A DNA stretch of 64,000 nt from a virus (taxonomy: Duplodnaviria > Caudoviricetes): IMG/VR virus record IMGVR_UViG_3300042483_000388, one strand, 5' to 3'. The notes beneath the pieces are model-generated. The model saw only the letters and a program-made list of their open reading frames with translations. It did no database searches and was not told where the DNA came from. Shown in pieces: positions 15,455 through 49,761 of the stretch (positions within the stretch are counted from its first letter, which is position 1; the number at the start of each line of letters is the position of its first letter). Made by a program: the position numbers and the translations under genes.

Positions 15455-15486
15455 ATGTATATTTTATAAAACAATTATTAATTATT

Positions 15487-16470: not shown

Positions 16471-16484
16471 TATAAAAAATACAA

Positions 16485-17504: not shown

Positions 17505-17950
17505 AAGAACAAGAAATAACAAAATTAGAGTTTTTGTTAATGTGTAATGATAATATCGTTGTCCAACGATTCTTTAATGTTAGGAATTTCAACCGAAATG
17601 CCCACAAATCTGAGGAGTTTTACGACTATATAAGGGTGTTTTGCGCAGAACTTCAACATAATCTAAAGATGAGAACCGTTAGTTATATGTTAGATAATCA
17701 ATATGAAATTACGGAAAATCCTGAAGTATTAAACACGTCAATTACGGATGGTGATGAGGTTTTTAATTTACTAATTAAATTGGGAGACCTGACAATTTGT
17801 CATAGAGCGTTTAACGCTAAAGCATACCCTCCAAAGGTGAGATATACCGTTGACCTACGACCCAAGTTGAAAAACATACTCTCAACACTTACTGACATTT
17901 TTTCAGGTAAAGATTTTAATTTTTTATATCCAGAATTTATTAAAAACTAA
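17501..17950 (+). CDS. Hypothetical protein (149 aa) between exonuclease and helicase
   Basis: Coupled ORF with typical codon style; no recognised motif. Confidence 0.7.
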   Translation: MKEQEITKLEFLLMCNDNIVVQRFFNVRNFNRNAHKSEEFYDYIRVFCAELQHNLKMRTVSYMLDNQYEITENPEVLNTSITDGDEVFNLLIKLGDLTICHRAFNAKAYPPKVRYTVDLRPKLKNILSTLTDIFSGKDFNFLYPEFIKN

Positions 17951-17985
17951 TAGTATTTATCTTTACAAACGAAAGGAAAAAAAAC

Positions 17986-19380: not shown

Positions 19381-19401
19381 ATTTTAAAAATTAAACAAAA
19401 A

Positions 19402-22534: not shown

Positions 22535-22996
22535 ATGGCAAATAATGGTATTACATATGGTATAAATTTTCCTTTTGTTGATTCATTTGATGGTAGGTAT
22601 TTAGATGTTAATAACACAACTGAAGCTGAGATACGAAGTAACTTGGTTCATTTATTATTAACAAGAAAAGGATCAAGATATTTTTTACCTGATTTTGGTA
22701 GTAGATTATATGAATATATTTTTGAACCATTAGACGGGCCAACATTTTCTGATATAGAATCTGAAATTAGAGACTCTATTGGTAAATATATGCCAAATCT
22801 ACAAGTAACCACAATAACGGTAGAACCTGGATCTGCGGGTTTGGAAGATAAAGGTAATACTGTAAATAAATACGGAGAAAGGGAATTTAGGGTGACTAAC
22901 ATTAGTCAATTAGAGCACACCGCAAAAATAAAAATAGATTATAAAATTACAGATTCGGCATTTGAATCAAGTGATTTCATAATAATCAATATTTAA
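22535..22996 (+). CDS. Baseplate wedge subunit, gp25/GPW-like
   Basis: IRSNLVHLLLTRKGSRYFLPDFGSRLYEYIFEP...IRDSIGKYMPNL motif. Confidence 0.88.
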   Translation: MANNGITYGINFPFVDSFDGRYLDVNNTTEAEIRSNLVHLLLTRKGSRYFLPDFGSRLYEYIFEPLDGPTFSDIESEIRDSIGKYMPNLQVTTITVEPGSAGLEDKGNTVNKYGEREFRVTNISQLEHTAKIKIDYKITDSAFESSDFIIINI

Positions 22997-23002
22997 TATT
23001 AT

Positions 23003-24844
23003 ATGGCAGAAAAACAAATATCTTATACCGTAAGGGATTTTCAAGGTGTAAGGACGGAGTTAATTAATTTTACAAAAACTTATTACCCCGATTTAGTTCA
23101 AAACTTTAACGATGCGGGTATATTCTCGGTTATGTTGGATATGAACGCCGCTGTTACAGATAATCTAAACTTTCAAATAGATAGAAGTATACAAGAAACT
23201 GTATTACAATACGCTCAACAAAAATCTTCGGTTTATAATATAGCAAGAACGTATGGTTTAAAAGTTCCAGGACAAAGACCATCTGTTGCTTTAATTGATT
23301 TCTCAATTACGGTTCCGGCCTTTGGTGATAGAGAAGATTTAAGATATTGTGGGGTTTTAAGAAGGGGGTCACAAGTTAGTGGTGCTGGACAACCATTTGA
23401 AACGGTTTACGACATTGATTTTGCATCACCAATAAATGGTGATGGGGCACCAAATAGGGTTAAGGTTCCAAATTTTGATTCTAGTGGTAAATTAATTAAC
23501 TATACAATAACAAAAAGAGAAGTTGTTGTTAATGGTATCACAAAGGTATATAAGAGAGTAATTACACCTAATGATAATAGACCTTATATGGAATTGTTCT
23601 TACCTGAAAAAAATGTTTTAGGAATAACAAGTGTATTGTTAAAAAGTGGGACACAATACTCAACAATTCCACAACCGCAAGATTTTATTACGGTAGGTCC
23701 TGATAGATGGTTTGAGGTAGACGCCTTAGTTCAGGATAGGGTATTCATTGAAGACCCGACTAAAGTTTCGGATCAACCTGGTATTAAAGTTGGTAGATAT
23801 ATCTCAACATCGCAAAAATTTATTAGTGAGTATACCCCTGAAGGATTCTGTAAAATGACTTATGGTGGTGGTAATATTTCTGCTGAAGCTCAACTTAGAG
23901 AGTTTGCTCGTGACGGAAAAGGATTTGATTTAAGTAGATATACAAATAACTTAGCTTTAGGGGCTGCTTTACCCGTAAATACAACATTATTTGTTCAATA
24001 TAGAATTGGTGGTGGTTTGGGAAGTAATTTAGGTATAAATACAATAAACCAAATTGGTACCGTGTCATTTGCAATAAATGGACCATCTGATTCTGTAAAT
24101 AGAAGTGTTATTAATAGTTTAAGTTGTAATAATGTGACTGCGGCAATTGGGGGAGCTAACCCACCAACAACAGAAGATGTTAGAAACTTGGTTTCATTTA
24201 ACTTTGCCGCACAACACAGAGCTGTTACGGTAAATGATTATAATTCAATTATTAGAACAATGCCATCTCAGTTCGGAGCACCAGCAAAGGTTGCCATCAC
24301 TGAAGAAAATAATAAGATAACGATTAAAATGTTGTCTTACGATTTAAATGGTAGTTTATCAAATGTTGTTTCTAACACACTAAAACAAAATGTTGCGAAC
24401 TATCTGTCAAACTATAGAATGATAAACGATTATATATCGATACAAGCGGCCGAAACAATCGACTTAGTGGTTGATGTTGATGTTGTTTTGGATAATAGTC
24501 AAAATCAAGGATCTATTGTTGCAAAAGTTATTGATATTGTAACAACCTTTTTTAATCCTTTTGTTAGGCAATTGGGTGAAAATGTTAATATATCAGAACT
24601 AAAAAGGTTAGTCCAATCGGAAAATGGTATTGTAAGTGTATCTGATGTTAGATTCTTTAACCAAGTTGGAGGACAATATTCGTCAAGTCAAACATCAATG
24701 CCTTACTCTGATCCTGTAACAAAACAGATTCAACCAACTGCTGATACAATCTTTGCAACACCAACACAAATATACCAAATTAGATATCCAAATAAGGACA
24801 TTAACATAAGAGTTCTTAACCTAAAAACGGTAAACTTCTCTTAG
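23003..24844 (+). CDS. Baseplate wedge protein, T4 gp6/baseplate J-like
   Basis: RDFQGVRTELINF, VQYRIGGG..SN, GGANPPTTEDVR and RAVTVNDY motifs. Confidence 0.88.
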   Translation: MAEKQISYTVRDFQGVRTELINFTKTYYPDLVQNFNDAGIFSVMLDMNAAVTDNLNFQIDRSIQETVLQYAQQKSSVYNIARTYGLKVPGQRPSVALIDFSITVPAFGDREDLRYCGVLRRGSQVSGAGQPFETVYDIDFASPINGDGAPNRVKVPNFDSSGKLINYTITKREVVVNGITKVYKRVITPNDNRPYMELFLPEKNVLGITSVLLKSGTQYSTIPQPQDFITVGPDRWFEVDALVQDRVFIEDPTKVSDQPGIKVGRYISTSQKFISEYTPEGFCKMTYGGGNISAEAQLREFARDGKGFDLSRYTNNLALGAALPVNTTLFVQYRIGGGLGSNLGINTINQIGTVSFAINGPSDSVNRSVINSLSCNNVTAAIGGANPPTTEDVRNLVSFNFAAQHRAVTVNDYNSIIRTMPSQFGAPAKVAITEENNKITIKMLSYDLNGSLSNVVSNTLKQNVANYLSNYRMINDYISIQAAETIDLVVDVDVVLDNSQNQGSIVAKVIDIVTTFFNPFVRQLGENVNISELKRLVQSENGIVSVSDVRFFNQVGGQYSSSQTSMPYSDPVTKQIQPTADTIFATPTQIYQIRYPNKDINIRVLNLKTVNFS

Positions 24845-35301: not shown

Positions 35302-38288
35302 TGGCAATAAATAAATTTACTTGTCCACCACAGAGTAGTGCAGCAAATCAGTTCTCTAACAACTTAGTTGGGGTACAACTTGTTGCTGGTGGTGGTTTAA
35401 CTCAGGCAAATTTTAATTTTACCACCGGAATAAGTGAAAAACAGAATAGAACTTTTACTATTGGGGCGTTTTCTGAACCAATTAATTTGGAATCAATTAA
35501 TATTGATACAATTGCCGAATCAAGAGAAATAATTGCCAAAAACTATAGGATTTACCCTAATTATGACTTATCTCAGGTAACGAACTTTACTCAATATGGT
35601 TCTTTAGTTAAAAGATTTTCAGTATCAATAGCGAAGATTATTAATTTTTTTCCGGCTGGTTTAGAAGTTTCGCCACAAACAGCGACTTTTTCAACACAAG
35701 AAACAGCACATAATATTTCATATAACCAAACAGAAAATGAGACCTACTTAGAGGTTAGTATTTCATCAATTAGAAACCCATTTGATATTGATTACACTGA
35801 AAGTGCGACAAGAAACTTTTTATTAAGAGAAAATGAGGTTTCCGTATTGAGAAATATGACGGAAAACTATAAGAAGTATGTCATATATTTAAATGGAATA
35901 GAGTATCCTATAAATTACTTATACCCAACAACAAGTACCTCAACAGAATTAAGGTTGATTGTTGATGGTAATCCTTTCGAGGGTAATCAAATAACTTACG
36001 ATTATTTAGTTATTAGACCTAACAATTATGAAGTAAATAAGGTGTTTAACATGGATTTTACACCTGTTGAGAACTTCTTACTTAACAGACAAATTACGCC
36101 GGCTTACACATCAACCTTTAAAGTGCCAATTCAAAATGAAGATGGGACATATACCATCACTAGTACGTTTGCCACTTTCCCTAAGAGTGGTATTTGGAAT
36201 TTGGACATTACGTCAGTTAGTTTTGATAACTATTTGATAAAGATCAATAACTTCGCAATAAATTTAGATACCTACAATACAAATATAATCTCAAGATTTT
36301 TAACAACAGGAGCCTTAAAAGAGTTTGACACTCCAGATCAAAAATATGAGAAATTGTTGCAAATATATGGTAGAAGTTTTGATGAGACAAGACAATTTAT
36401 TACCGCATTAGGAAACATGAATAGTGTTCATTATACAATTAAAAATGATATACCATCACAATTACTTAAAAATTTAGCTCAAACATTAGGGTGGACTACA
36501 AACTTTTCACCAATTTCAAACGAAGAATTATTACAAGCGGTCTTTACACACCAACCAAACACATTTGCCGGATTACAAATAGGTCAAACACCAGAAGAAT
36601 TAAATTATCAATTCTATAGAAACCTAATATTAAATTCCGCTTGGTTATTTAAGTCTAAAGGAACAAGAAAATCTATTGAGTGTTTATTAAGGATGGTTGG
36701 TGCGCCTGAGGCGTTAATTGATTTTAACGAGTATATTTATGTTGCCGACCAAAGAATTAATATGGGTGAGTTCCAACAACAATTTTTCCAAATAACGGGA
36801 GGAACTTACCAACAACAATTTTCGGTTTATGAAACTAGTAACGTATTTTCAATACATGGAGTACAATATACTGGATTTACAACAACTACATCAAACGAAA
36901 ATGTAACAACAATACGAAATGATTATCCTGTTGATGATTTTGGTTGTCCACAAATGCCAATCCCATCAGAAACGTATTTTTATCAAATTGGTGGTGGTTG
37001 GTTTGAATCAACACCAGAACATAGAATGCCGGCAGCATTCATACCAACCAATTTAACATTTACCGGAAACAACCCAAATTTTCAAACAACACTTTTACCA
37101 TTTAATTATGGTCTGGAGTATCTACAACGATATGAACAATTTCCGTTTATGGATTTAGGTTTCAAATTAAGAAGTGTTATTGATAATAAAAAAAGTTGGG
37201 TTAATAATGAACCAACATTAAGAAAAAGTTTTGATGGTGGATTTAATGCGTATTATTCTGTTGGAGAAGAATGTTTAACAATTAATGTAAAAAATGTTGA
37301 TGTGTTTATGAACCCATCACAAGGTCTTGTTTATGATGTTTGGACAATGTCAAGACAATATAATTACCCAATTCCGGAACAAGGACTATTCTACTCACCA
37401 CCATCACCTTGTAATATACCAAACCCATACCCAAAAATTGGTGGAATAGATTGGACAGTTATTATACCAAAACCAAAACAAAAAACATTCTTTGAGTTTG
37501 CTCAAACTTTTTGGCATAATATGATAAATGTTAGAAATCGTCAATACATTACGGATGGTAAAACTGGAGGGTATCCAACACTACAATCTATTTATTGGAA
37601 GTATTTGGAGTCAGGACAAACTATAGGAATTCCTAACGATAATTTTACATATCAAACGATGATTGATTATGTAAATGGTATGGGGGATTATTGGGTTAGA
37701 TTAGTGGAACAAATGATACCGGCAACCACAATTTGGAATACTGGTGTCAGACTTGAAAACTCAATATTCCATAGACAAAAATTCGTATGGAGAAGACAAG
37801 TTGGGTGTCAAATTATACCGGTTCCTTGCAAACCTTGTTCTCTTACCACACAACTATATGTTTATGATTGTCCAATACAACAGGTAACTTGTCCACTATA
37901 TCCTTGGAATAGTGATCCACAATCAACCTCATTTGGTGTTGTATTGAATAGTACTCTAGATAACTTCTATAGTGTTAATGGTTTAAATGCTTCTGTTTGT
38001 CAACCATCATCAGTTGTTACCACATGGTATGTGGATATAAGATTGAATGGTGTTCCATTGACACAATACCCTTTCTTTAATGGTATTGGTAATTTATCCG
38101 CACCAACAGATACTCAGTGGGTGGTAGCGTTAGAAGATGTGTTAGATAGTTTACTCACATTAGGATATAGTTATAATATAGATACGGACAATGATTTGGT
38201 TCAGGTATATAGTAATAATTGTCAACCAAACTCTGACGACTTTCAAATAAACGTAGGAATTTCCTTTGAATTATATTGTAATAACTAA
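35301..38288 (+). CDS. Baseplate wedge protein with a P2 gpI/T4 gp7-like segment
   Basis: LLKNLAQTLGW...RNLILNSAWLFKSKGTRKSIECLLRMVG resembles the Tail_P2_I motif. Confidence 0.65.
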   Translation: MAINKFTCPPQSSAANQFSNNLVGVQLVAGGGLTQANFNFTTGISEKQNRTFTIGAFSEPINLESINIDTIAESREIIAKNYRIYPNYDLSQVTNFTQYGSLVKRFSVSIAKIINFFPAGLEVSPQTATFSTQETAHNISYNQTENETYLEVSISSIRNPFDIDYTESATRNFLLRENEVSVLRNMTENYKKYVIYLNGIEYPINYLYPTTSTSTELRLIVDGNPFEGNQITYDYLVIRPNNYEVNKVFNMDFTPVENFLLNRQITPAYTSTFKVPIQNEDGTYTITSTFATFPKSGIWNLDITSVSFDNYLIKINNFAINLDTYNTNIISRFLTTGALKEFDTPDQKYEKLLQIYGRSFDETRQFITALGNMNSVHYTIKNDIPSQLLKNLAQTLGWTTNFSPISNEELLQAVFTHQPNTFAGLQIGQTPEELNYQFYRNLILNSAWLFKSKGTRKSIECLLRMVGAPEALIDFNEYIYVADQRINMGEFQQQFFQITGGTYQQQFSVYETSNVFSIHGVQYTGFTTTTSNENVTTIRNDYPVDDFGCPQMPIPSETYFYQIGGGWFESTPEHRMPAAFIPTNLTFTGNNPNFQTTLLPFNYGLEYLQRYEQFPFMDLGFKLRSVIDNKKSWVNNEPTLRKSFDGGFNAYYSVGEECLTINVKNVDVFMNPSQGLVYDVWTMSRQYNYPIPEQGLFYSPPSPCNIPNPYPKIGGIDWTVIIPKPKQKTFFEFAQTFWHNMINVRNRQYITDGKTGGYPTLQSIYWKYLESGQTIGIPNDNFTYQTMIDYVNGMGDYWVRLVEQMIPATTIWNTGVRLENSIFHRQKFVWRRQVGCQIIPVPCKPCSLTTQLYVYDCPIQQVTCPLYPWNSDPQSTSFGVVLNSTLDNFYSVNGLNASVCQPSSVVTTWYVDIRLNGVPLTQYPFFNGIGNLSAPTDTQWVVALEDVLDSLLTLGYSYNIDTDNDLVQVYSNNCQPNSDDFQINVGISFELYCNN

Positions 38289-40468
38289 TGGGATATATTA
38301 ATGTATATGGTTATAATGTAACCGGTGATTGTGAAAACATAGGTGTTGGTTCAGTAAGTTTTTTAATAAATGGAGATACACCACCTTTTGGGGTTACATG
38401 TGTTGGATCTGGTTGTACGTTACCAACATCGGCATCAACAACATCTTATAGTGCGGAGAACTTAACGGGAGGAACATATTTTTTACAAATAATAGATGGG
38501 TCATCCACATCAAGATTACAAACGGTTTATATTTCAACAGGGACTACCGCAACAATTGACTCATCAAATACTACCTGTGGATTTAATAATGGTACCGTAA
38601 CTGGATTCACTTCTGGAGTTTATGGTAATGCAACATTTGATCTCTACGATATTTTAAATAATGTAGTGTCTAGTGGTTCAACACCAAACTCTTATTTTGA
38701 ATTTACAAATTTATCTGCCGGAACATACTATATAGTCGCTAATGATGGTGGTGGGTGTACGGGAATTACGGCATCTGTTATTATCAACCCATCAACACCG
38801 TTTAATTTCGGTTATTATGTTGTTGATGATGCGGGATGTGCGTCATCAAGTGGTAAAATATTTATTACTGGTTTAACGCCTAGTTCGGCATATACATATA
38901 GTTGGTCATCTAATGTTGGGTCACAAACAGGGGATACAATGACAGGTTTAACCGCTGGTACCTATACGGTAACAATCACAAACCCTATTGATTGTGAGTC
39001 GTCAAGTGCGATAACAGTAACACAAGTACAGGCCGTTGGTAGTGCTGGATTTATTGTAACACCACCAAGTTGTTTCCAAAATGATGGTGTAGTTATTGCA
39101 ATTCTAACTGGAGGTACCGGACCATACTATTATAGTGGGTCAACAGGTGAAGTGGGAATATCTTTTGATACATCATTTACCTTTAGTGGTGTACCTACAG
39201 GCGTGTTTAATGTTTATGTTATGGATGCTGGTCTTTGTACTTATAGTGCTTCTGTTACTTTAAACACTCCAGGATCATTTAATTCTGTAAATGCTATAAC
39301 AACAAATTCCACCTGTTCTACAAACGACGGGACACTCCAAATTATTGTTGATAACGGAGCAACATCAGCCGTTAATTTACAAATACAAATATCTGGATCA
39401 ACAGGAATTATTCAAACGGGAACTGTTGGTAATGCAAATCAAACATTCTACGGATTACCAAATGGGACTTATATTTATGCCGTATCTTCAGTTGGGTGTA
39501 TATATACAGGAACTACAAGTATAATTTCGGTTAATAAATATACTGTTACAGCAACAACCGTTGGTACCACATGTGGATTTAATAATGGATCTTTAGAGGT
39601 TACAGTATCAACTGGTGGCACTTTACCATATAACTTTACGTTAACAGGGCCAACATACAATCCATCAACAACTAGTGGACCTATAGGTATATTTAATAAC
39701 CTGTTATATGGTAATTATACTTTAACCGTACAAGATTCTGGAATTCCGGCGTGTATACAAACTTACCCAATTTATATCAATTATAGTCAAAATATGTATT
39801 TTGATTTGAACCCTATTAATCCTGTGAATGGTAATGATGGTCAAATATCGACCACAATATATTCGGGAGTCCCTCCATTCACATTAAGTTGGAGTGGAAA
39901 TGTTATTGGTCAGACAGGATCAACAATAACTGGACTAACAAGTGGTACTTACGATTTAACAATAACTGATAGTAGTGGTTGTACACTAACAAAATCGGTT
40001 ACATTATTAGGAACCAAATTATATAGTGATTATATGTTCCATACAATATGTGAGGACATGTTTAAACCAAACGGATCTATTGGTGTAAGGAACATTAGGT
40101 CTATGTATTTGGAAGGTTTTGGAGACCTTACTAGTGGTGATACAAATTGTATTATAAATTCCGCAACATTCTCAATTTATACGGACGTTGATGGTGACAT
40201 TAAAATACAACCATTTTATGTGTCAACAGGAGCCACTGACTATCCAAATGATATTGTTTGGTCAGATAGTATTGTTGCAGCATTAGAAGAATATGTTGGT
40301 ATTACAGATGTTACGGTAGATTTAATATCAAATAGAATTACCTTAACATCTGGATGTGAAAAAATAACTAAGGATTGTATTTTACAACCATTCAATCCAC
40401 TACAAGATACCGAAATAACGGTTAAATTGGTTATTGATTATGAAATATCTTGTGTAACTTGTATATAA
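38288..40468 (+). CDS. SprB-repeat tail fibre/adhesin-like protein
   Basis: Repeated units of the form T.CG.NNG...GGT.PY.Y.WS..GQTG.T.TGL..GTY..TITD..GC. Confidence 0.75.
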   Translation: MGYINVYGYNVTGDCENIGVGSVSFLINGDTPPFGVTCVGSGCTLPTSASTTSYSAENLTGGTYFLQIIDGSSTSRLQTVYISTGTTATIDSSNTTCGFNNGTVTGFTSGVYGNATFDLYDILNNVVSSGSTPNSYFEFTNLSAGTYYIVANDGGGCTGITASVIINPSTPFNFGYYVVDDAGCASSSGKIFITGLTPSSAYTYSWSSNVGSQTGDTMTGLTAGTYTVTITNPIDCESSSAITVTQVQAVGSAGFIVTPPSCFQNDGVVIAILTGGTGPYYYSGSTGEVGISFDTSFTFSGVPTGVFNVYVMDAGLCTYSASVTLNTPGSFNSVNAITTNSTCSTNDGTLQIIVDNGATSAVNLQIQISGSTGIIQTGTVGNANQTFYGLPNGTYIYAVSSVGCIYTGTTSIISVNKYTVTATTVGTTCGFNNGSLEVTVSTGGTLPYNFTLTGPTYNPSTTSGPIGIFNNLLYGNYTLTVQDSGIPACIQTYPIYINYSQNMYFDLNPINPVNGNDGQISTTIYSGVPPFTLSWSGNVIGQTGSTITGLTSGTYDLTITDSSGCTLTKSVTLLGTKLYSDYMFHTICEDMFKPNGSIGVRNIRSMYLEGFGDLTSGDTNCIINSATFSIYTDVDGDIKIQPFYVSTGATDYPNDIVWSDSIVAALEEYVGITDVTVDLISNRITLTSGCEKITKDCILQPFNPLQDTEITVKLVIDYEISCVTCI

Positions 40469-40471
40469 GAC

Positions 40472-40963
40472 ATGAACGAAATAACAATATCTTCAATTTC
40501 AGGGTTAACCCCACCATTTAGTGCGTATTGTTGTAATGTTTATGGTAATCAATGTGTCTATGTTGGGTCGGGAGTAATGCCTCCTATTACTATAACATTA
40601 CCACCACAATTTAATACCGCACCTGCTGTTGGTTTATTAATAATAGACTCAATTGGGTGTGAAAGATTTGAAGAAATATATTGTATACCGACAACGCCAA
40701 CGCCCACACCTACCCCTACAGAAACGCCAACACCTACACCAACTCCCACACCAACTCCCACACCAACAATACCTTGTAATACTTATTGGTTATTTGAGGG
40801 TGGTCCAGCAGGGGCTACGTTTGATTATACAGATTGTGATGGGTTGTTACAAATACTTCTGGTTGGTATTGCTAGTTCCGAATATCGTTGTGGATACCTT
40901 TTACCCACCCCAACAATAATATCAGGTAGTGGGTCATTTTCAGATTCAGGACCTTGTCCTTAA
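40472..40963 (+). CDS. Two-domain Cys-rich structural protein with a (TP)n linker
   Basis: Small beta domain, PTTPTPTPTPTETPTPTPTPTPTPT, then a Cys-rich module. Confidence 0.65.
   Translation: MNEITISSISGLTPPFSAYCCNVYGNQCVYVGSGVMPPITITLPPQFNTAPAVGLLIIDSIGCERFEEIYCIPTTPTPTPTPTETPTPTPTPTPTPTPTIPCNTYWLFEGGPAGATFDYTDCDGLLQILLVGIASSEYRCGYLLPTPTIISGSGSFSDSGPCP
40690..40768 (+). repeat. Degenerate 6-bp (Thr-Pro) coding repeat
   Basis: acgcca/acacct/actccc/acacca units. Confidence 0.85.
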
Positions 40964-41004
40964 TTTAGATTCACTTATTAAAAATAACGATTATTATTTC
41001 ACTA

Positions 41005-41985
41005 ATGAAAGAGATTTTATTTGTATCTGCCCAACCTGATGTTCCCTATTTTATTTGGCAAATTAAACTTTATGTTAACAACTTTATTGATAATGGTATT
41101 GACCCAAATCAAATACACGTTGTTTTAGGTTTAGTTCTTGGTAAAACAGAACCGTCTAAAGGGGCAAAAGAATTGGTTAATTTGGGGATAAATACACACT
41201 TTTTTATTGATAATAGAGTTAAAAAACATTATATCCCAAGTATTAAACCATATTTAATATCAAAATGGATACAATCAAACCCTGATTATGGGAAGATATT
41301 TTTCCTACACGATGCGGACATTATATTTAGGGAACTACCGAAATTTAATCGGTTGTTAAACGATGAGGTAAGTTATTTATCTGATACCATTGGATATATT
41401 GGTTATGATTACATTATGGATTGTTGTAAAAGATATGAATCAAAACACCCAAACTCAGAAAAGGGACAATTAATGTCTGAGATGGTTGAAGTAATTGGGG
41501 TTGATGTTGAAACAATAAAAGAAAACCAAGAAAATTCAGGTGGAGGACAATACCTGATCAAAAATACAACTTGTGAACTTTGGGATAAAATCTATAAAGA
41601 TTCAACCACATTATATGATAAGATGTTAGACTACCAAAAAAGATTCCCAATAAATCCAGGCCAAATACAATTTTGGACAGCAGAAATGTGGTCTCTTTTA
41701 TGGAACCTATGGATGTATGGGTTTAAAACAAAAATAACAAATGAGTTTGAATTTTGTTGGGCAACAGATGATATTAATAAGTACAATACCACACCAATAC
41801 TACATATGGCTGGAGTAACACAAGATATAAAAACTACAAAGTTTTTTAAAGGTGATTATATTAATATAGACCCAATTGAGGAATTAAGAAAAAACCCAAA
41901 CGTTTTTGATTATATAGATTCAAATAGTTCAACAATAAAATATATTGAGAATATGAAATCATATCTCCAAAAATCAAATATTTGA
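41005..41985 (+). CDS. GT-A glycosyltransferase, HPAT/SGT1 (GT95/GT96)-like peptide O-glycosyltransferase
   Basis: PYFIWQIKLYVNNF, YIPSIKPYLISKWI, LHDADIIFR (DxD), WTAEMWS and ILHMAG parallel, in order, the remembered plant SGT1/HPAT motifs YFDWQ, AINKP...WL, ILDADMIIR, W.SEMY and IIHY. Confidence 0.7.
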   Translation: MKEILFVSAQPDVPYFIWQIKLYVNNFIDNGIDPNQIHVVLGLVLGKTEPSKGAKELVNLGINTHFFIDNRVKKHYIPSIKPYLISKWIQSNPDYGKIFFLHDADIIFRELPKFNRLLNDEVSYLSDTIGYIGYDYIMDCCKRYESKHPNSEKGQLMSEMVEVIGVDVETIKENQENSGGGQYLIKNTTCELWDKIYKDSTTLYDKMLDYQKRFPINPGQIQFWTAEMWSLLWNLWMYGFKTKITNEFEFCWATDDINKYNTTPILHMAGVTQDIKTTKFFKGDYINIDPIEELRKNPNVFDYIDSNSSTIKYIENMKSYLQKSNI

Positions 41986-41986
41986 T

Positions 41987-41994
41987 TATTTATC
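41987..41994 (+). promoter_or_regulatory. TATTTATC putative late promoter
   Basis: Motif before the ATG at 42002. Confidence 0.5.
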
Positions 41995-42001
41995 TAATAA
42001 G

Positions 42002-44059
42002 ATGGTAGAAAATTGTTACATACTTTATCCTGTTAATGGTAATTCAGAACCAATAGTTTCAAACTATAGTGGTTTAACTGCATATACTTCAGGTTTTGCT
42101 TATATTGAAACTACTGGAATAACAAGTCCAAGTGGTTGTTTTTATGTTTTAAATATTGGTGAGATAGAATGTGTTCCAACAGAAGAAATAACAATTGATA
42201 GTGGGACAACTTGTTCTGGGTTATGTTATTGTTATTTTATAAAAACCCAATCTGAAAATACCGATGTTACATATGTTGATTGCGATAACAATATCGTTGT
42301 TCAAAGTCTAATATCCGGATTAACATATAATCTTTGTAGTAGAATATATCCCCAATTTGATTCGGAATCTAATATACCGTTAAAGGTAACCGACATATGT
42401 GAAAACAATCAATGTCCACCAACATTACCAACGGTAAAACCAACAAACGAATGTGATGTAATAACGTTGTTCCCAATGAAAATACAATGTTTAACACAAC
42501 AACCAACCAGCATATTTTCTTATGATGGAGCCACAACTCTTTTAATAACTGGTGGAACACCACCATATACAGTATTTTGGGAAGTAGGTAGTTATGCTCC
42601 GGCATTAACAAACTTAAGTGTTGGTAGTTATACCGCAACGGTAACGGATTATTATGGGGACTTCACCGAAGTTACGACCTGTGTGTTAACAGCAGAAACA
42701 ATAGTTTATTCTGCAATGTGTTTTGTGGTTTCAGGTATAGTTGAAGAGAATGTTGTTTATATAACATCACAACCACAAGGAGTGAGAAATGGTAAACCTT
42801 ATTACATTTTAACATATGGGGTAACTACTTTAGGGTATGTTATATGGCAACCACAATACGAATATTGGTCATTCTGTCAATCAATGGAATGTCAAAACGG
42901 AACCTTCTATTCTTATTTGTTAGATAATGGCGATTTATACCCATCAGGATCTACTTGGCAAGTTTCGGCCTCAACACTATATCAAATAACGGAATCTTAT
43001 GTCGGGCCTTGTGAGATACCTGTGGTTCCTACCGATTATGGACCATTATGTGTTTCATTAGTTATTAGGAGTAATGAACTTGGATACCTATCACAAGAAC
43101 TACAAATAGAGGTATTACCAACGAATGACCTTAATGGTCAACCAACTTGGACATCTCTTGATAGTCAATATTTCATGTATTGGAATACAGGATCAACACC
43201 AAACCAATGGACATTCACAGGATATCCCGGTACAAATATTAGTTTGGTTAATAATGATCCTTCAGCACCACCATTAAGTAATTGGGTAATTTATGGTACT
43301 GGTGAAGTATTACAAATGACAGTTTTGTCGGGAGAATGTTCAGTAAATCAATTAGTGACTGTTAGTGTGACAAAAAATAACGCTCTTTGTGAAAACGATG
43401 GGAGTATTTCTGTTAGTGCTATTGGAGGAACGGCCCCGTATCAATATTCAATAGATGGGGGAATAACCTATCAAACATCTCCAATATTTTTAAATTTAGC
43501 ACCAGGATATTATGACGTATTTGTTAAGGATTCTAATAATGTTGTAGGTAGTACAACGACAATACAAATTACCTCAACACCATCAACGACATATTTCCTA
43601 ACATTATCGGTAAATACGATAAATGATACATTTGTGGTTACGGCACCGACATTACCGGCAGGTGTTACGATATCATTCAATTTGAATATGACATCAAACT
43701 TTAGTTATTATCCAACAACATTAAGTCCAGCCCCAACATATAATAACATAACAACAATAGATGGTTATGGAGTAATGACACTTTATAATACAACAAGTAG
43801 TGTGATACCATTATCGGGACCTTGTACCGCGGATGGACCAATTAACATAGCACAACAAAACCTACAATACCTTAATAATTTAACAATAGGAAGTAATCAA
43901 ACAATAACAGGATTTACAACAAATCAAATAATAAACGACCCAACAGGATATTGTGAAGATGCGATTCCTAATTACCAATTATATATCAGTAATGCCGTAA
44001 TAAATAATTGTAAGTGTTGTAAAATAAAATTTATAAACCCTGTTCCAACAAAAAATTAA
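42002..44059 (+). CDS. Cys-rich tail fibre/adhesin-like protein with SprB repeats
   Basis: GGTPPYTVFW...LTNLSVGSYTATVTD; CENDGSISVSAIGGTAPYQYSIDGG...F.NL..G.Y.V.VKDSN. Confidence 0.72.
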   Translation: MVENCYILYPVNGNSEPIVSNYSGLTAYTSGFAYIETTGITSPSGCFYVLNIGEIECVPTEEITIDSGTTCSGLCYCYFIKTQSENTDVTYVDCDNNIVVQSLISGLTYNLCSRIYPQFDSESNIPLKVTDICENNQCPPTLPTVKPTNECDVITLFPMKIQCLTQQPTSIFSYDGATTLLITGGTPPYTVFWEVGSYAPALTNLSVGSYTATVTDYYGDFTEVTTCVLTAETIVYSAMCFVVSGIVEENVVYITSQPQGVRNGKPYYILTYGVTTLGYVIWQPQYEYWSFCQSMECQNGTFYSYLLDNGDLYPSGSTWQVSASTLYQITESYVGPCEIPVVPTDYGPLCVSLVIRSNELGYLSQELQIEVLPTNDLNGQPTWTSLDSQYFMYWNTGSTPNQWTFTGYPGTNISLVNNDPSAPPLSNWVIYGTGEVLQMTVLSGECSVNQLVTVSVTKNNALCENDGSISVSAIGGTAPYQYSIDGGITYQTSPIFLNLAPGYYDVFVKDSNNVVGSTTTIQITSTPSTTYFLTLSVNTINDTFVVTAPTLPAGVTISFNLNMTSNFSYYPTTLSPAPTYNNITTIDGYGVMTLYNTTSSVIPLSGPCTADGPINIAQQNLQYLNNLTIGSNQTITGFTTNQIINDPTGYCEDAIPNYQLYISNAVINNCKCCKIKFINPVPTKN

Positions 44060-44068
44060 ATAAAACAA

Positions 44069-44076
44069 TATTTATC
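44069..44076 (+). promoter_or_regulatory. TATTTATC putative late promoter
   Basis: Motif before the ATG at 44083. Confidence 0.5.
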
Positions 44077-44082
44077 ATTTAA

Positions 44083-46581
44083 ATGGCATACATACTTAAA
44101 AATACGTCGGGGTTAGTAAATACTAGAGTTACTGATACAGGTAGACAAAGATTATCTGAGGGTAAATTTAATATCGTATATTTTACCATTGGTGATAGTG
44201 AAGTTTCATATAATGAATTACCTACCACTTATAATCAAACAAATAGCTTGATTTTAGAACCACAATTTAACGCTCAAAATTCATCTGGAGTTCCTGAATC
44301 AAATAGACAATATGTTAAGTATCCATATTTGGTTGATGAAGGGCAGACTAACATATTTGGAATACCATTTATGGATTCCACCGTAGATCCCGTTTATAAC
44401 AGAGCCGCAATGAGAGGATTTTTCTCTGGCATTACTTCAGCGTCGACAATAGAATGGAAAGCGTTAGTTAATAACCAATATGTTACAACACCAAATTATG
44501 TTGTTAGAATGTCGTCATTAATTGGTATAAATGAAATAAATGTAGAAAGACTTGATTGTAATTCACAAAATAACAATACACCACAAGTTGGTGATTTTAT
44601 AACGATATACTATGATGGTAGAGCAACAACAAACTGTAGTTGTGTTAATTTGCCAACACCAACACCAACACCATCTGTAAGTAATTCACCAACCGTTACG
44701 TTAACACCGACACCGTCATCAACAGACCCTTGTTCTTCGGCAACACCAACACCAACACCAACTCAAACACCTTGTTTTACTCCAACACCAAGTGCTCAGT
44801 GTCCATTACCGCCACCACCTGACTGTAATATGGAGGTTTATAGTTGTTTTTCTATTTTAACTTATAAAATTATTGCAGTTTGTGAGAATAAACTTACGTT
44901 AGATAGAAATACACCAGATTTTAGTGACTTATCTTCCGATTGTTTAGCAAGAACTTTAATATATCCGGCCCAAATGGTTCCATTTTATGATAGTTTCACA
45001 CCTGAACCACATTGGGATAGAAATGTAATTGATTTTGAATCTATTTGTGATACGGATCAGTTTGATGTTAAAGTTTGGAATATGAACATTCCTTGGACTG
45101 AAAATCCAGCAGGACTTTTCCCAACTCAATTTAATGGGTATGATAAATTTGGGTCAATAAATTATATTGGAACAAAAGAGTATCTTGGATATAATTCATC
45201 TAATGGTCAAACATCGACAGATGATGTTTATTATTATAATTCTTTTGGTGAAAAAATGGTTGTAACCGCTGAAGAACAAAAGGCAATATCAATCATACAT
45301 TATACAAATCAGACTATTGATTTTTTCTATGGTGAGAAATTTGCTTTAGAACCTTATGATAGTGCAAATCCTGAAAATACTCAAGGACAAGCAAGAAACT
45401 TTAAACTACACATACCAACTTTAATGTGGCATAAAAATCCACAATGTTGTTTTGGTCAAACATTTTGGGTAGACCCTCCAGGGTTTGAAGGTAAAGATCT
45501 ATTCAAAGTTCAATATACAAAATCAAAAATAGATCAGGATATGAATCAGCCTGGTTTAAGATACTATAATTTATGGGATACATTTTCACAACCAAACGGA
45601 CTCCCAAGTAGAATAGGAAAGGTATATCCTGACTCAAAAATGGTGGTTATTGATGATGAGGAAATTGTTGCAGCACTTTCATATAAGGCAAATAGAAATT
45701 GGACATTACCGGCGCCACAAGTTTCATTAATAACTCCAAACACATTTGGGACATCAAATTCGACCGGAATTTTAACTGGTGTTGGAGAAACTCTTTGGGT
45801 AACATATCGACTATCAAATAACACAACATTTACAAACTCACTTCATAGTAATTATTATTCTTATGTTGTGGGGAACGATCGTGTTTGTGGTCCCGATAGC
45901 CCTAAAAATGTAGCGGTTAGATTTGGAGGTGATTTCCCTTGTTTAGTTCAACCAGGATATTCGCCAACAACAACAACGACAACTTATAACCCTACAACAA
46001 CAACGACAACAACCATACCTTATACAACGACAACCACAACAGTATGTCAAGTGTGTACAGTACCAGCAGGATTTTATGCTACTGAGTTCCAAGTGTTAGC
46101 TCAAAAAGTGATAACAGGATTAAGACCAGACCCAACACAATGGAGATCTATTGATTTTACGAGTCAGGCAAGTCAATACTCAATAAATGGGTATTTAACC
46201 CAAGAATCTTTAACAGCAACAACATTTGTTATAACCGCCGAAAATTATGCGGCAGCACCCTACTACAACTTAAATGATTACATCGATTTAGTACCAATTA
46301 ACCAAACAGGTCAAGTTTTAAATTTTGGTGATGAATATTATTTTTATGGAAATTTAGAGACAGATATTCAAGCCACAATTTATGAAATGAAATATAAGAT
46401 CAATTTAAGTGAATCTGAGTTCTTAATTTCACAAAACCCAAGTTGGACTAAAGGGACTAAATCATATGTTAGTGAGATATCGTTAATGGATGAGAATAAG
46501 GATATTCTTGTCATTTCTAAACTACAATCACCAGTGTTGAGACAGGGAATACAACAGTATATAGTAAAGTTAGATTTCTAA
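44083..46581 (+). CDS. Tail fibre attachment/collar-like protein with (TP)n and poly-Thr linkers
   Basis: N-terminal VTDTGRQRL...YFTIGDSE and C-terminal EISLMDENKDILVISKL resemble the two halves of the DUF3751-like fibre base domain. Confidence 0.55.
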   Translation: MAYILKNTSGLVNTRVTDTGRQRLSEGKFNIVYFTIGDSEVSYNELPTTYNQTNSLILEPQFNAQNSSGVPESNRQYVKYPYLVDEGQTNIFGIPFMDSTVDPVYNRAAMRGFFSGITSASTIEWKALVNNQYVTTPNYVVRMSSLIGINEINVERLDCNSQNNNTPQVGDFITIYYDGRATTNCSCVNLPTPTPTPSVSNSPTVTLTPTPSSTDPCSSATPTPTPTQTPCFTPTPSAQCPLPPPPDCNMEVYSCFSILTYKIIAVCENKLTLDRNTPDFSDLSSDCLARTLIYPAQMVPFYDSFTPEPHWDRNVIDFESICDTDQFDVKVWNMNIPWTENPAGLFPTQFNGYDKFGSINYIGTKEYLGYNSSNGQTSTDDVYYYNSFGEKMVVTAEEQKAISIIHYTNQTIDFFYGEKFALEPYDSANPENTQGQARNFKLHIPTLMWHKNPQCCFGQTFWVDPPGFEGKDLFKVQYTKSKIDQDMNQPGLRYYNLWDTFSQPNGLPSRIGKVYPDSKMVVIDDEEIVAALSYKANRNWTLPAPQVSLITPNTFGTSNSTGILTGVGETLWVTYRLSNNTTFTNSLHSNYYSYVVGNDRVCGPDSPKNVAVRFGGDFPCLVQPGYSPTTTTTTYNPTTTTTTTIPYTTTTTTVCQVCTVPAGFYATEFQVLAQKVITGLRPDPTQWRSIDFTSQASQYSINGYLTQESLTATTFVITAENYAAAPYYNLNDYIDLVPINQTGQVLNFGDEYYFYGNLETDIQATIYEMKYKINLSESEFLISQNPSWTKGTKSYVSEISLMDENKDILVISKLQSPVLRQGIQQYIVKLDF

Positions 46582-46633
46582 AAACTACAATTTTTATATT
46601 TTATTCTTATAATATTTAAAAGACATTTTTTAT

Positions 46634-47239
46634 ATGACAAAAAATTTGAAGAATTCACCCAAAGTATTGGGGTTAGATGTATCAACCCGAACCATTGGAT
46701 GGGCTTTATTTGATATTATGAGTCAAGAACTTTTAGAGTTAACACATATTTCCCCACGACCTAAAATAGATAAAGATGAGGACAAATTAAAAGAATTACT
46801 TTTAAAGTCCGAAATATTTGCCGATAAATTAAAAGAATATAAGGATTTAGGTATTGTTAGAGTTATTATAGAAGAACCACTAATAAATTCTAACAATGTT
46901 TATACAGTTCAAACACTATTAAGATTTAATAGTTTTGTATTTAAAGAAATATATAATATATTAGGAATAATACCCGAATTCATTTCTACATATAACTCAA
47001 GAAAATTTGCGTTTCCAGAATTAGTTCAAGAGAACGATAAAAAGAAATTTGTGTTGTTTGGTGGATTACCTAAAGATGTTGATAAAAAAACAATTATTTG
47101 GGATAAGGTAGCTAAAAGAGAACCACAAATAAAATGGTTATACACAAAAAATAATACTTTAAAGAAAGAAAATTTTGACCAAACAGATGCTTATGCTTGT
47201 GTTTTAGGATTTATGAGGTTAAAAGAAGTGTGGAAGTAA
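46634..47239 (+). CDS. ruvC: RuvC-like Holliday junction resolvase
   Basis: VLGLDVSTRTIGWA, IIEEP and DQTDAYAC RNase H-fold acidic residues. Confidence 0.8.
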   Translation: MTKNLKNSPKVLGLDVSTRTIGWALFDIMSQELLELTHISPRPKIDKDEDKLKELLLKSEIFADKLKEYKDLGIVRVIIEEPLINSNNVYTVQTLLRFNSFVFKEIYNILGIIPEFISTYNSRKFAFPELVQENDKKKFVLFGGLPKDVDKKTIIWDKVAKREPQIKWLYTKNNTLKKENFDQTDAYACVLGFMRLKEVWK

Positions 47240-47265
47240 TATAATTTAAAATACTCATAGTTATT

Positions 47266-47296
47266 AATATCGACCTTACAGTCGATATTTTTTTTT
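47266..47296 (+). terminator. Terminator between convergent genes
   Basis: aatatcgac-cttaca-gtcgatatt plus a T-tract. Confidence 0.8.
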
Positions 47297-48566
47297 AACA
47301 TACATTTTGTAAGTTAATTGCCGTGAAACTTAATGAAGGTGATGTTGGTATTGTTGTTGAACAAACAATAAAGTTTGTGTCCGCAGCTAAATTTGCCGAT
47401 ATTGAATTACCTAAACAATTTGTATAGCTGTACTTAATACTTGAAGGGCCAATATTTGTTACCCTATATTCTAATGATACGCAAGGGGATGGTGATGGGG
47501 TTGGTGTCGGTGTTGGTGTTGGTGTTGGAGAAGGGGTTGGACTAATTCCTGGATCACAATTAAGGCAAGATCCATCCGTTACAGGACCAATTTCAGTTAT
47601 TAACTCAATAACGTCAACACCACTAATATTCTCAAACAATCCTTGATAAATTGCACAATGACTTTGACCATTAATATTCATTTTATATACATAACCTTCT
47701 TTTGGTGTATTACCAAGTGGATCTAAAACAATATCCGAAGTATAATAATCAATACCTGTAAAACAATCTTTAAATAGTTTACTATTAGCACATTGTAATA
47801 CCTCACTAAATGAGTTGAAAATCACCTCACCCGAAAAAGAACATGGTCTTGTCACTTCTGGTGATGGTGAAGGTGTTGGTGTTTGAGTGGGTGAAGGTGT
47901 TGGGGTAATGCCTGTTACTGAAACACTCATTGATACTCCACCACAAATATTAGACACTGTTGGGGTTGGAGTCGGTGTAGGTGTTTGAGATGGTGATGGT
48001 GTTAGACTTGGTGTTGGCGTAACCAAACAATCAAAAATAGCCTCAAAATCAAAATTTTCACAAGCTGAGGTTGTTGTGGTTGTTGTTATACATATACCGG
48101 AATACATAACAGTGTCGTCAAAATCGGGACATTCGGAAGTGCTACCATAAGGACCAAATTGATCGCAAGGATTGCTAAGAGTTTGTGATAAGCACCACCT
48201 TGTTTCTCCTGATGAATAGTAAATAACGAATCCTGTTGTTTGTCCTGTGAAATAAGAATTGACATCATAAATTCCAGCATATTGGTAAGTATCATTATAG
48301 GTATCATCATTTTGAATACAATAAAATTGGGTGCACTCGCATGCTTCTATAAATTCGATCTTACCAGTTAAATCAGTCCCATATTTGGTTAAACCATCTG
48401 AAAAAGTTGAGGATGTCAACTCAGTTCCTGTGGTACAAGCAACGCTAGAATAAACTACTGTTCCTGATAACAAATCATTACCGTACAAGGTAGTTGTTAG
48501 TGCCGAAAAACACAGATTAACAAAATCAGTCCCAATCGAATAAATACCCAAATTATTACAAGCCAT
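47295..48566 (-). CDS. Cys-rich structural/adhesin-like protein with three (S/T)P-repeat linkers
   Basis: TPTPSLTPSPSQTPTPTPTPT, TPTPSPTQTPTPSPSP and SPTPSPTPTPTPTPTPSPSP, plus TTTTTTS. Confidence 0.7.
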   Translation of the reverse strand: MACNNLGIYSIGTDFVNLCFSALTTTLYGNDLLSGTVVYSSVACTTGTELTSSTFSDGLTKYGTDLTGKIEFIEACECTQFYCIQNDDTYNDTYQYAGIYDVNSYFTGQTTGFVIYYSSGETRWCLSQTLSNPCDQFGPYGSTSECPDFDDTVMYSGICITTTTTTSACENFDFEAIFDCLVTPTPSLTPSPSQTPTPTPTPTVSNICGGVSMSVSVTGITPTPSPTQTPTPSPSPEVTRPCSFSGEVIFNSFSEVLQCANSKLFKDCFTGIDYYTSDIVLDPLGNTPKEGYVYKMNINGQSHCAIYQGLFENISGVDVIELITEIGPVTDGSCLNCDPGISPTPSPTPTPTPTPTPSPSPCVSLEYRVTNIGPSSIKYSYTNCLGNSISANLAADTNFIVCSTTIPTSPSLSFTAINLQNVC

Positions 48567-48861: not shown

Positions 48862-49761
48862 ATGGACGAGTTTGATACTATTGTTGAAATTATTAGTGAA
48901 TTTTTGGGTGAACCAAAAAAAGTTTATGAGAACACTTCACAGGTGTCTTGGGATTGTCCCGTGTGTGATGAAGGCGCAAATAAAGGTAATTTAGAGGTTA
49001 ATATAGAAAAGTCAGTCTTTCACTGCTGGAGTTGTGGTGACTATGAGGGAACTCACGGGTCTTTGGGTAAGTTATTTGACAAATTTGGTAATAAGAAACA
49101 AAAAAAATTATATCAGGTATTAAAACCTGAAACCATAGTAAAAAGAGAGAGAAAGAAAAAAACATTAAAACTCCCAGACGGGTTTACCCTATTCAAAGAC
49201 TCAAGTAAGGTTTATCCGATTAGAAGACAGGCAATGAATTACCTTAAAGATAGGGGAGTTACTGATGAGATGATAGAAAGACGTGGTATTGGTTTTTGTG
49301 ATAAGGGAGACCATTCAGGAAGAATCATCATACCATCCTTTAATAATGATGGAGTTTTAAATTATTATATTTCAAGGAGTTGGAACCCAATGAGTAAGGC
49401 TAAATACAAAAACCCCCAAGATGAAAAAGATAAGATTATATTTTGGGAAAACTTAATTGATTGGAATAAAGACATTTATTTGGTAGAAGGTGCTTTTGAT
49501 GGATTGTTTTTAGATAACTCAATACCAATGTTAGGTAAGCATATGTCAGAACTATTGTTTGAAACCATATATACAAAGGCTAAGGGTGATATTATACTAT
49601 GTCTTGACGCCGATGCATGGGAAAACTCCGTTAAACTATATCACGAATTAAATGGTGGTGAATTATGGGGACGGATTAAATTAATAAAACTACCTGACGA
49701 TTCCGACATTGCCGATTTAAGGGGTGAGATAAAAGATGAATATTACCATATTATACGATGA
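48862..49761 (+). CDS. dnaG: DNA primase (zinc finger plus TOPRIM)
   Basis: CPVC...HCWSC, RIIIP, KYKNP, YLVEGAFD, LCLDAD. Confidence 0.9.
   Translation: MDEFDTIVEIISEFLGEPKKVYENTSQVSWDCPVCDEGANKGNLEVNIEKSVFHCWSCGDYEGTHGSLGKLFDKFGNKKQKKLYQVLKPETIVKRERKKKTLKLPDGFTLFKDSSKVYPIRRQAMNYLKDRGVTDEMIERRGIGFCDKGDHSGRIIIPSFNNDGVLNYYISRSWNPMSKAKYKNPQDEKDKIIFWENLIDWNKDIYLVEGAFDGLFLDNSIPMLGKHMSELLFETIYTKAKGDIILCLDADAWENSVKLYHELNGGELWGRIKLIKLPDDSDIADLRGEIKDEYYHIIR

Follow-up and report, generated by a model that had tools for sequence, protein, structure and literature searches.

A glycosyltransferase gene among genes for Thr-rich proteins

We analysed a 64,000-nucleotide stretch of viral DNA (IMG/VR virus record IMGVR_UViG_3300042483_000388; Duplodnaviria, Caudoviricetes), referred to here at its full length as the window, in which a gene for a putative glycosyltransferase lies among genes whose products carry Thr-rich tracts. 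A preliminary description of this DNA had proposed that the enzyme glycosylates such tracts in tail proteins, and the open reading frame (ORF) listing bore out its account of the four genes concerned. The enzyme gene (41005..41985, + strand) encodes a 326-residue protein with a DxD motif, assigned as a GT-A glycosyltransferase of family phrog_4417 on the basis of a profile match and its AlphaFold 2 (AF2) fold. It directly follows, as had been stated and after a gap of 41 bases, the gene for a 163-residue protein (40472..40963, + strand) made of two small Cys-containing domains and a (TP)n linker (residues 73-98; nucleotides (nt) 40688-40765, + strand) that reads PTTPTPTPTPT and then TPTPTPTPTPTPTP. 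An 832-residue protein (44083..46581, + strand) has a TP block (residues 191-226; nt 44653-44760, + strand), which includes PTPTPTPS and TPTPTP, and three poly-Thr runs (residues 627-653; nt 45961-46041, + strand); its tracts appear as low-confidence linkers in an AF2 model, and its only look-alikes are viral proteins, the matches in a feature-based search of the Atlas being viral unknowns. A third gene (47295..48566, − strand) encodes a 423-residue Cys-rich modular protein, which carries the poly-Thr run TTTTTT at residue 161 (nt 48069-48086, − strand) and, in its translation, three (S/T)P blocks (linkers at nt 47859-47984 and 47484-47543, − strand). We regard these three proteins, recognized from their translations and a tract scan and, for the first and third, also from their codons, as candidate acceptors of the enzyme.

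Strong (S/T)P or poly-Thr tracts were found in 3 of the 53 non-overlapping ORFs of the window, all of them within 6.6 kb of the enzyme gene; the tract scan found none in the ORFs of 1684, 2336 and 1880 residues. The tracts are encoded by mixed synonymous codons (ACA, ACG, ACC and ACT for Thr; CCA, CCT, CCC and CCG for Pro), which indicates that it is the protein sequence that is maintained and that the tracts are not microsatellites of the DNA. In related phages, a tract-bearing orthologue of the 832-residue protein is conserved, and most relatives have tracts in their orthologue of the 423-residue protein, which keeps the same relative strand.

Two further large proteins with SprB repeats, both tail- or adhesin-like and both free of tracts in the window, are encoded on either side (38288..40468, + strand, PF13573 SprB, E = 4.5e-7; and 42002..44059, + strand, PF13573 SprB, E = 2.3e-9). 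The second begins 16 bases 3′ of the enzyme gene, and its positional counterpart is tract-bearing in many relatives. The genes belong to a myovirus baseplate and fibre module that spans approximately 22.5 to 46.6 kb and whose start is marked by wedge genes (22535..24844) for a gp25-like protein (22535-22996, + strand; PF04965 GPW_gp25, E = 2.3e-13) and a gp6-like protein (23003-24844, + strand; phrog_219, E = 2.4e-20). None of the other ORFs scanned in this baseplate and tail-fibre block matched an enzyme family, in agreement with the earlier statement that the glycosyltransferase gene is the only enzyme-like gene of the cluster.

The enzyme resembles plant peptide glycosyltransferases in its predicted fold

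The enzyme matched phrog_4417, a family annotated as 'unknown function', over residues 6-319 (positions 3-290 of the 293 in the profile; E = 1.4e-66), whereas sequence searches against Pfam, NCBIfam and the Protein Data Bank (PDB) gave no match. An exhaustive search of public data placed at least 825 clusters at 50% identity in this family. An AF2 model built with 49 diverse homologues had very high confidence (predicted local distance difference test (pLDDT) score of 97.3; predicted template modelling (TM) score of 0.94) and showed alternating strands and helices in a single Rossmann-like α/β/α domain, which together with the DxD motif is what defines GT-A enzymes. To describe conservation we used two alignments, of 49 and 140 diverse homologues. 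In both, D105 of the DxD motif (D103-A104-D105, within HDAD; nt 41311..41319, + strand) was invariant and D103 was at least 90% conserved. K282 was likewise invariant in both, and H267 was invariant in the smaller alignment and at least 90% conserved in the larger one (H267 and K282, nt 41803..41850, + strand). The DxD motif is the presumed Mn2+ and UDP-sugar site. By analogy to GT8-type enzymes, H267 is the presumed third metal ligand and K282 the presumed diphosphate contact of retaining GT-A enzymes. This pattern of conservation is the one expected of a metal-dependent GT-A enzyme.

These residues also bear on whether the protein might be a catalytically dead structural or assembly factor, with the Thr tracts serving as unmodified spacers. 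The homologue phiFL2B gp49 is annotated as 'major tail protein', and the gene is always found in structural modules. However, the DxD motif, the His and the Lys are kept over hundreds of sequences at 30-40% identity, and the GT-A core is predicted to be intact with high confidence. We therefore consider a dead factor highly improbable.

Structural searches with Foldseek indicated what kind of enzyme it might be. Among Swiss-Prot entries of the AlphaFold database (AFDB), the best match was Arabidopsis SGT1, a peptidyl-serine α-galactosyltransferase (Q8VYF9, GT96; E = 5.9e-11, TM score of 0.63), and ranks 2-8 were seven hydroxyproline arabinosyltransferases (HPATs; GT95; TM scores of 0.62-0.65), after which scores fell to GT8 enzymes at approximately 0.45. 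Among AFDB fold clusters, the list was headed by three proteins from the enzyme's own family together with an unnamed nucleotide-diphospho-sugar transferase, and most of the next name-bearing matches were algal 'HPAT-like domain' proteins. Across these clusters and the ESM Atlas, HPAT-family proteins came next after the enzyme's own family (TM scores of 0.55-0.72); in the Atlas itself, HPAT-family clusters scored 0.70-0.72, compared with 0.59 for GT8. The likeness to SGT1 and HPATs that had been proposed from sequence motifs thus held for the fold, but not for the Pfam HPAT model (PF23452), which matched neither the window enzyme nor any protein in five phage genomes. PF23452 was carried by 10% of the members of two related Atlas clusters. 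Judged from the model, the enzyme is a structural cousin of GT95 and GT96 and not a demonstrable sequence member of either.

At least 356 PDB entries matched the fold at E ≤ 0.001, and the 50 best listed were almost all GT-A glycosyltransferases. The top matches were all retaining GT-A enzymes (GT8, GT6 and GT24; TM scores of at most 0.47 by query): WbbM, the catalytic domain of UGGT, LARGE1, the blood-group enzymes GTA and GTB, XXYLT1, glycogenin, LgtC and PBCV-1 A64R. The PDB seems to be without any GT95 or GT96 structure. Because all structural neighbours are retaining, the enzyme is probably retaining. It probably uses a UDP-sugar.

Some of the PDB matches, WbbM and LgtC among them, are lipopolysaccharide (LPS) or polysaccharide enzymes, and this raises the alternative that the enzyme acts on a non-protein acceptor (such as host envelope polysaccharide, teichoic acid, LPS or phage DNA) and that the tracts are plain flexible linkers. 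Many phage glycosyltransferases do modify DNA or host surface glycans (PMC12619734). Nevertheless, when GT95 and GT96 were weighed against lipid and LPS enzymes, a check that the preliminary description had called for, the peptide glycosyltransferases were the nearest folds by a wide distance (TM scores of 0.62-0.65, against approximately 0.45 for lipid, LPS or other GT8 enzymes). Glycosylation of phage DNA was considered separately and set aside on the basis of the gene's position, its closest folds and the link to Thr tags described below.

The first β-strand of the fold starts at residue 5 and there is no hydrophobic N-terminal segment; lacking a membrane anchor, the enzyme is predicted to be soluble and should work in the cytoplasm. 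In 82 multidomain homologues scanned, the identifiable extra domains were mostly those of other glycosyltransferases (GT7C, GlcNAc-T, GT2, GT25, GT29, O-FucT, GT6 and GT1), with a sulfotransferase domain also present, which places the family in glycan building. One bacterial Atlas cluster has the HPAT fold fused to a PqqD peptide-recognition domain (TM score of 0.71), a fusion that fits a fold family specialized for peptide acceptors. Fusions of this kind occur in Pseudomonadota proteins, which are candidate glycosyltransferases of ribosomally synthesized and post-translationally modified peptides (RiPPs).

Poly-Thr tracts accompany the enzyme across phages

The preliminary description had called for a test of whether the enzyme gene co-occurs with TP-repeat genes in related phages. 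Among IMG/VR relatives of the same lineage, whose enzymes are 57-79% identical, large flanking ORFs carried TP or poly-Thr tracts in 77 of 80 cases, and the other three had little or no downstream flank. The association extends well beyond this lineage, to phages of Bacillota, Actinomycetota and Bacteroidota. Using tblastn (E ≤ 1e-5), we found the enzyme in 77 phage records, mostly from phages of Lactobacillus, Enterococcus, Staphylococcus, Lactococcus and Clostridium, with one Arcanobacterium and one Chryseobacterium phage. By this measure of sequence distribution, the system is far more widespread than the window phage.

We examined 11 cultured-phage loci. In all 11, the enzyme gene lay within the structural module, and each locus encoded two to three poly-Thr structural proteins. 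In Enterococcus phiFL1A, Lactococcus 1706 and Clostridium phiCTP1, it comes immediately after the tail-tube gene, and in Lactococcus CHPC836, Lacticaseibacillus R3.3 and Enterococcus nattely it follows that for the capsid. In iLp84 and Bacchae, both Lactobacillus phages, it lies after the gene for a small protein that consists almost purely of poly-Thr. A short poly-Thr ORF separates it from the tail-tube gene in Staphylococcus SA2 and Arcanobacterium TPWB06. The poly-Thr runs are usually the final 8-30 residues of capsid and tail-tube proteins, as in ...TTTTTTSHA, ...TTTTTTTSK and ...TTTTTTTTTTHHD. On these counts, the feature common across phages is poly-Thr and not (S/T)P.

Poly-Thr ORFs made up 24 of 159 ORFs at the 11 loci with the enzyme and 0 of 246 in six enzyme-free phages (Fisher P = 6e-11). 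These six controls, whose tail-tube proteins are 50-60% identical to that of phiFL1A, were three Streptococcus prophages, Lactobacillus Bassarid and phiJL-1, and Pediococcus cIP1; that they lack the enzyme follows from searches of whole records for five of them and, for the sixth, Javan311, from a local tblastn on 34.5 of its 40.4 kb. Overall, no poly-Thr tags were found in eight enzyme-free phages whose capsid or tail proteins are 57-74% identical to those of enzyme-bearing phages. Three contrasts between close relatives illustrate the point. Lacticaseibacillus R3.3 is tagged, whereas phiJL-1, Bassarid and cIP1 are untagged; within the genus Coetzeevirus, the enzyme-bearing R3.3 and the enzyme-free phiJL-1 have capsids that are 67% identical and tail tubes that are 74% identical, and the alignments hold until R3.3 alone runs on into poly-Thr, which is the cleanest case. 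Enterococcus phiFL1A is tagged and the Streptococcus prophages are not. Lactococcus CHPC836 is tagged, whereas Lactobacillus Sha1 and Streptococcus thermophilus CHPC873, with capsids that are 58-62% identical, are not; for the latter two, absence of the enzyme refers to structural regions of 15-17 kb. Because the tags sit on core genes outside any mobile cassette and occur only where the enzyme is present, we argue for a direct functional link between the two.

A similar picture emerged from 80 loci in prokaryote genomes, in which single-domain copies of the enzyme (defined as shorter than 420 residues) lie mostly in prophages of Bacillota and some in Bacteroidota. A poly-Thr ORF was present within 4.5 kb of 28 of the 31 single-domain copies, compared with 2 of the 32 multidomain copies (P = 3e-12). 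The share of tract-bearing ORFs fell with distance from the enzyme gene, from 11.9% within 2 kb to 7.1%, then 0.9% and finally 0 of 206 beyond 6 kb. The multidomain copies (530-1377 residues; loci numbered within L099-L113 and L120-L176, for example L112:8001-8954) are chromosomal and come from Chitinophaga, Pedobacter, Mucilaginibacter, Sphingobacterium, Acidimicrobiia and Myxococcales. As they are almost without poly-Thr neighbours, their acceptors are presumably different.

This last observation counts in favour of a non-protein acceptor, as it shows that the fold is not restricted to poly-Thr acceptors. However, the phage gene lies inside structural modules, often 3-70 bases after a tagged gene, and the presence of tags on core capsid and tail-tube proteins only in enzyme-bearing phages is hard to explain without functional coupling. 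We consider a non-protein acceptor unlikely. The same data bear on a further alternative, in which the tracts are glycosylated by other enzymes, either of the phage or of the host, and the phrog_4417 enzyme extends the glycan or modifies another protein site. Near-complete relatives of the window phage encode 5-7 GT2-family genes (four IMG/VR genomes searched) and, in two of the four, an NDP-sugar epimerase that could serve such a pathway, and homologues of the enzyme are often fused to glycosyltransferases of the extending type. On the other hand, the tagged small Gram-positive phages have no other annotated glycosyltransferase within 5-6 kb, the correlation with tags belongs to the single-domain copies, and the nearest fold relatives are initiating peptide glycosyltransferases. 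Together, these observations make it improbable that another enzyme starts the glycan, and they favour the phrog_4417 enzyme itself as the one that modifies the tracts.

Several additional observations concern the tagged proteins. Almost pure poly-Thr small ORFs, built from TTTTTTxKP units, were found at L004:5652-5924, L088:4714-4920, L090:4620-4997 and L091:4643-4990. The equivalent ORF of iLp84 and Bacchae is annotated 'major tail protein'. In SA2 and TPWB06, the poly-Thr ORF and the 3′ end of the tail-tube gene overlap in different frames. Such an overlap would be consistent with a frameshift that gives the tail tube a mucin-like C-terminal extension, comparable to the immunoglobulin (Ig)-domain extensions known in other siphophages. 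A head maturation protease gene with poly-Thr runs near the C-terminus of its product was also seen (L004:868-1977, L088:2-1033 and L087:2367-3545), in Staphylococcus, Arcanobacterium and Enterococcus phages of 86-94 kb, which indicates that tags are not limited to proteins known to stay in the mature particle. The closest cultured-phage homologue of the window enzyme (39% identity) is that of Chryseobacterium phage MA9V-3 (L001:5615-8004), in which two ORFs within 2.5 kb upstream have internal Ser/Thr runs of 20-35 residues, with a short tract-free ORF between. As a cultured Bacteroidota phage, MA9V-3 could be a model for the system of the window.

A proposed glycosylation system for Thr-rich virion proteins

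Considering the fold, the position of the gene and the distribution of tags, we think it probable that the enzyme acts in the cytoplasm as a protein O-glycosyltransferase and that its substrates are Thr-rich tracts of virion proteins. In the mechanism that we propose, the enzyme would be made late, together with the structural genes, and would bind a UDP-sugar through the DxD motif, the His and a metal ion. It would then transfer a first sugar to the hydroxyls of Thr, and probably Ser, in disordered Thr-rich segments, before or during assembly. In the window phage, the acceptors would likely be the interdomain linkers of the fibre- or adhesin-like proteins at 40472, 44083 and 47295; in small Gram-positive phages, they would likely be the short C-terminal poly-Thr tags of capsid and tail-tube proteins. 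In the jumbo-phage lineage, the 5-7 GT2 genes and, where present, the NDP-sugar epimerase would be available to extend or supply the glycan. The modification may confer protease resistance, stiffen exposed linkers or shield the particle surface, benefits suggested by analogy to mucin-type domains, the linkers of bacterial cellulases and mycobacteriophages. Secreted bacterial cellulases have glycosylated Pro/Thr linkers.

The preliminary description had noted that GT95 and GT96 enzymes glycosylate Ser or hydroxyproline (Hyp) in Pro-rich repeats and had suggested a search for prolyl 4-hydroxylase and NDP-sugar genes. A Hyp acceptor would require a prolyl 4-hydroxylase, whose domain PF13640 was not found in the four relatives, which are estimated to be 68-100% complete, and this result favours Ser/Thr over Hyp; the NDP-sugar epimerase was present in two of them. 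As far as computation reaches, the checks that the preliminary description had proposed favoured its interpretation, with three corrections: GT95 and GT96 do not include the enzyme as a sequence member, poly-Thr replaces (S/T)P as the feature that the candidate acceptors share across phages, and the distribution of the system is far wider than the window phage.

A number of observations weigh against the proposed function. The kinship with peptide glycosyltransferases, with the Pfam HPAT model unmatched, depends on predicted structures at approximately 14% identity, and PF23452 appeared in 2 of the 49 homologues at E = 0.09, which is below significance. The AF2 model of the 832-residue protein, built with 30 orthologues, had a pLDDT of 43.5 and was too poor for a fold search, so that the virion role of this protein is read from its context, and the 423-residue protein is encoded on the other strand, outside the structural block. 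Three single-domain copies in prokaryote genomes (L107, L114 and L152) have no detectable tract neighbour. The co-occurrence counts are phylogenetically non-independent, although at least three independent contrasts exist. Co-folding of the enzyme with residues 605-685 of the 832-residue protein gave a score of 0.01, which we list here and which is not evidence either way. Finally, all of the support is comparative and the tracts are candidate acceptors: the analysis shows the fold, the conserved residues of catalytic type, the nearest fold relatives, the fusions to other glycosyltransferases and the co-occurrence with Thr tracts, and from these we infer that the tracts are modified, which kind of donor is used, that the enzyme is retaining and what the phage would gain.

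We also lean, with less confidence, towards a broader proposition: that phrog_4417 is the founding enzyme of a widespread 'poly-threonine tag' system, in which an SGT1/HPAT-like transferase reads Thr runs as a portable glycosylation signal. Such runs would have been gained repeatedly and independently on capsid, tail-tube, decoration and fibre proteins in phages of at least three bacterial phyla, and the enzyme would share an ancient peptide O-glycosyltransferase ancestor with GT95 and GT96.

If the proposed function is true, it would assign a role to an orphan 'unknown' family of at least 825 clusters, and finding the enzyme together with a poly-Thr tag would allow sugar-coated phages to be predicted. 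This rule can be tested directly in phages of Lactococcus, Lacticaseibacillus, Enterococcus and Staphylococcus, which are easy to grow. The tagged phages would include dairy, Staphylococcus and Enterococcus phages of industry and therapy, with a bearing on immunogenicity and clearance in phage therapy, on stability in dairy and the gut and on the interpretation of cryo-electron microscopy and mass-spectrometry data. A short poly-Thr tag and a small soluble enzyme may also provide a tool for protein glycosylation in the bacterial cytoplasm.

The phage, its host and the surroundings of the locus

Metagenomic contigs of 274-318 kb, with completeness ratings of 93-100%, carry near-identical and related copies of the window sequence, which identifies the window as part of an aquatic jumbo phage; a megablast search of 14 kb of the window against cultured phages gave no match. 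The SprB gliding-adhesin repeats (PF13573) in the two large proteins that flank the enzyme gene suggest a Bacteroidota host, and the host of this jumbo myovirus is probably an aquatic member of that phylum. The window phage resembles the 'moraphage' lineage, a likeness and not an established membership; that lineage has four core groups of putative glycosyltransferases to which no roles have been assigned (PMC12619734). A 65% identical enzyme gene with a poly-Thr neighbour is present on a 5.3-kb contig binned as 'Candidatus Woesearchaeota archaeon' (L098, CAYGYN010000024.1); most likely, this contig is a piece of a phage from the window lineage that was placed in the wrong bin.

Directly after the fibre block lie genes for a RuvC-like resolvase and a candidate zinc-finger primase, the latter named from its sequence alone (46634-47239 and 48862-49761), and upstream of the baseplate genes (14524-21261) are those for a single-strand DNA-binding protein, a UvsX-like recombinase, an exonuclease, a DnaB-like helicase and ribonucleotide reductase. 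Genes for structure thus alternate with genes for replication. A private late promoter, TATTTATA, was considered for the enzyme gene and rejected, as the motif is not in the 41-base gap upstream and occurs in the window about as often as chance predicts (15 occurrences, against a chance mean of 14); no promoter motif of the gene's own was seen. It does stand 5-23 bases 5′ of six + strand gene starts (1080, 13496, 21516, 22523, 34366 and 58812) and may be a phage promoter element.

Comparison with known systems

In line with the earlier statement that no described phage system of the GT95/96 type was known, our search of the full-text literature yielded no paper that deals with the phrog_4417 family, with capsid or tail proteins bearing poly-Thr tags, or with phage relatives of GT95 and GT96. 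We compared the proposed system with the enzymes and phages that it most resembles. Outside its own family, the enzyme has its best fold matches in the plant and algal enzymes SGT1/SERGT1 (GT96) and HPAT/RDN/PLENTY (GT95), with which it shares a GT-A core with a DxD motif. The residues that these enzymes modify are Ser or Hyp within extended, Pro-rich repeats of mucin-like character (PMC4908140 and PMC8012813). SGT1 transfers galactose to Ser next to Pro or Hyp repeats; Ser-Pro and Thr-Pro repeats adjoin the enzyme gene in the window. The differences are also clear. Identity is approximately 14%; the plant enzymes are Golgi proteins with a type II anchor, and the region aligned in them starts at residues 41-66 or 393 (Swiss-Prot Foldseek search), whereas the phage enzyme has no anchor and is predicted to be cytoplasmic. 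The correlated tract is poly-Thr, not Ser-Hyp4, and the gene is carried by phages and prophages. If the proposed function is correct, the plant extensin glycosyltransferases would be tied to a large family from prokaryotic viruses.

Two other groups of enzymes are more distant. GT8 enzymes (glycogenin, LgtC, RfaJ and galactinol synthase) have the GT-A fold and DxD motif in common with the phage enzyme and form the next-best structural class (TM scores of 0.41-0.47), but GT95 and GT96 are clearly closer to it, and the Pfam searches gave no GT8 match. Chlorovirus PBCV-1 encodes A64R, a retaining GT-A enzyme that works in the cytoplasm and has a virion protein as its target; it was among the PDB fold matches (2p6w; TM score of 0.52 by target), although as a much weaker structural match than SGT1 and HPATs. 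Instead of poly-Thr, A64R modifies an Asn-linked site in the capsid of a eukaryotic virus.

A biological parallel is found in mycobacteriophages, for which alone, and only in some cases, virion glycosylation by phage-encoded enzymes has been shown in the literature that we found. As summarized in PMC12619734 from Freeman et al. 2023, these phages encode glycosyltransferases, and glycans are present on the C-termini of capsid and tail-tube proteins. The Gram-positive phages described here imply the same C-terminal arrangement, known in their case from sequence, in that a phage glycosyltransferase accompanies S/T-rich tails on virion proteins. No record named as a Mycobacterium phage was among the 77 tblastn records (E ≤ 1e-5), which indicates that the enzyme family differs from the mycobacteriophage glycosyltransferases. 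The systems also differ in that a single enzyme gene lies inside the structural module and in that the tracts of the jumbo phage are internal, fibre-like linkers and not C-terminal tails. Phage-encoded glycosylation of capsid and tail-tube C-termini is therefore already known, and what these comparisons add is a candidate system of the same kind that uses a different enzyme family.

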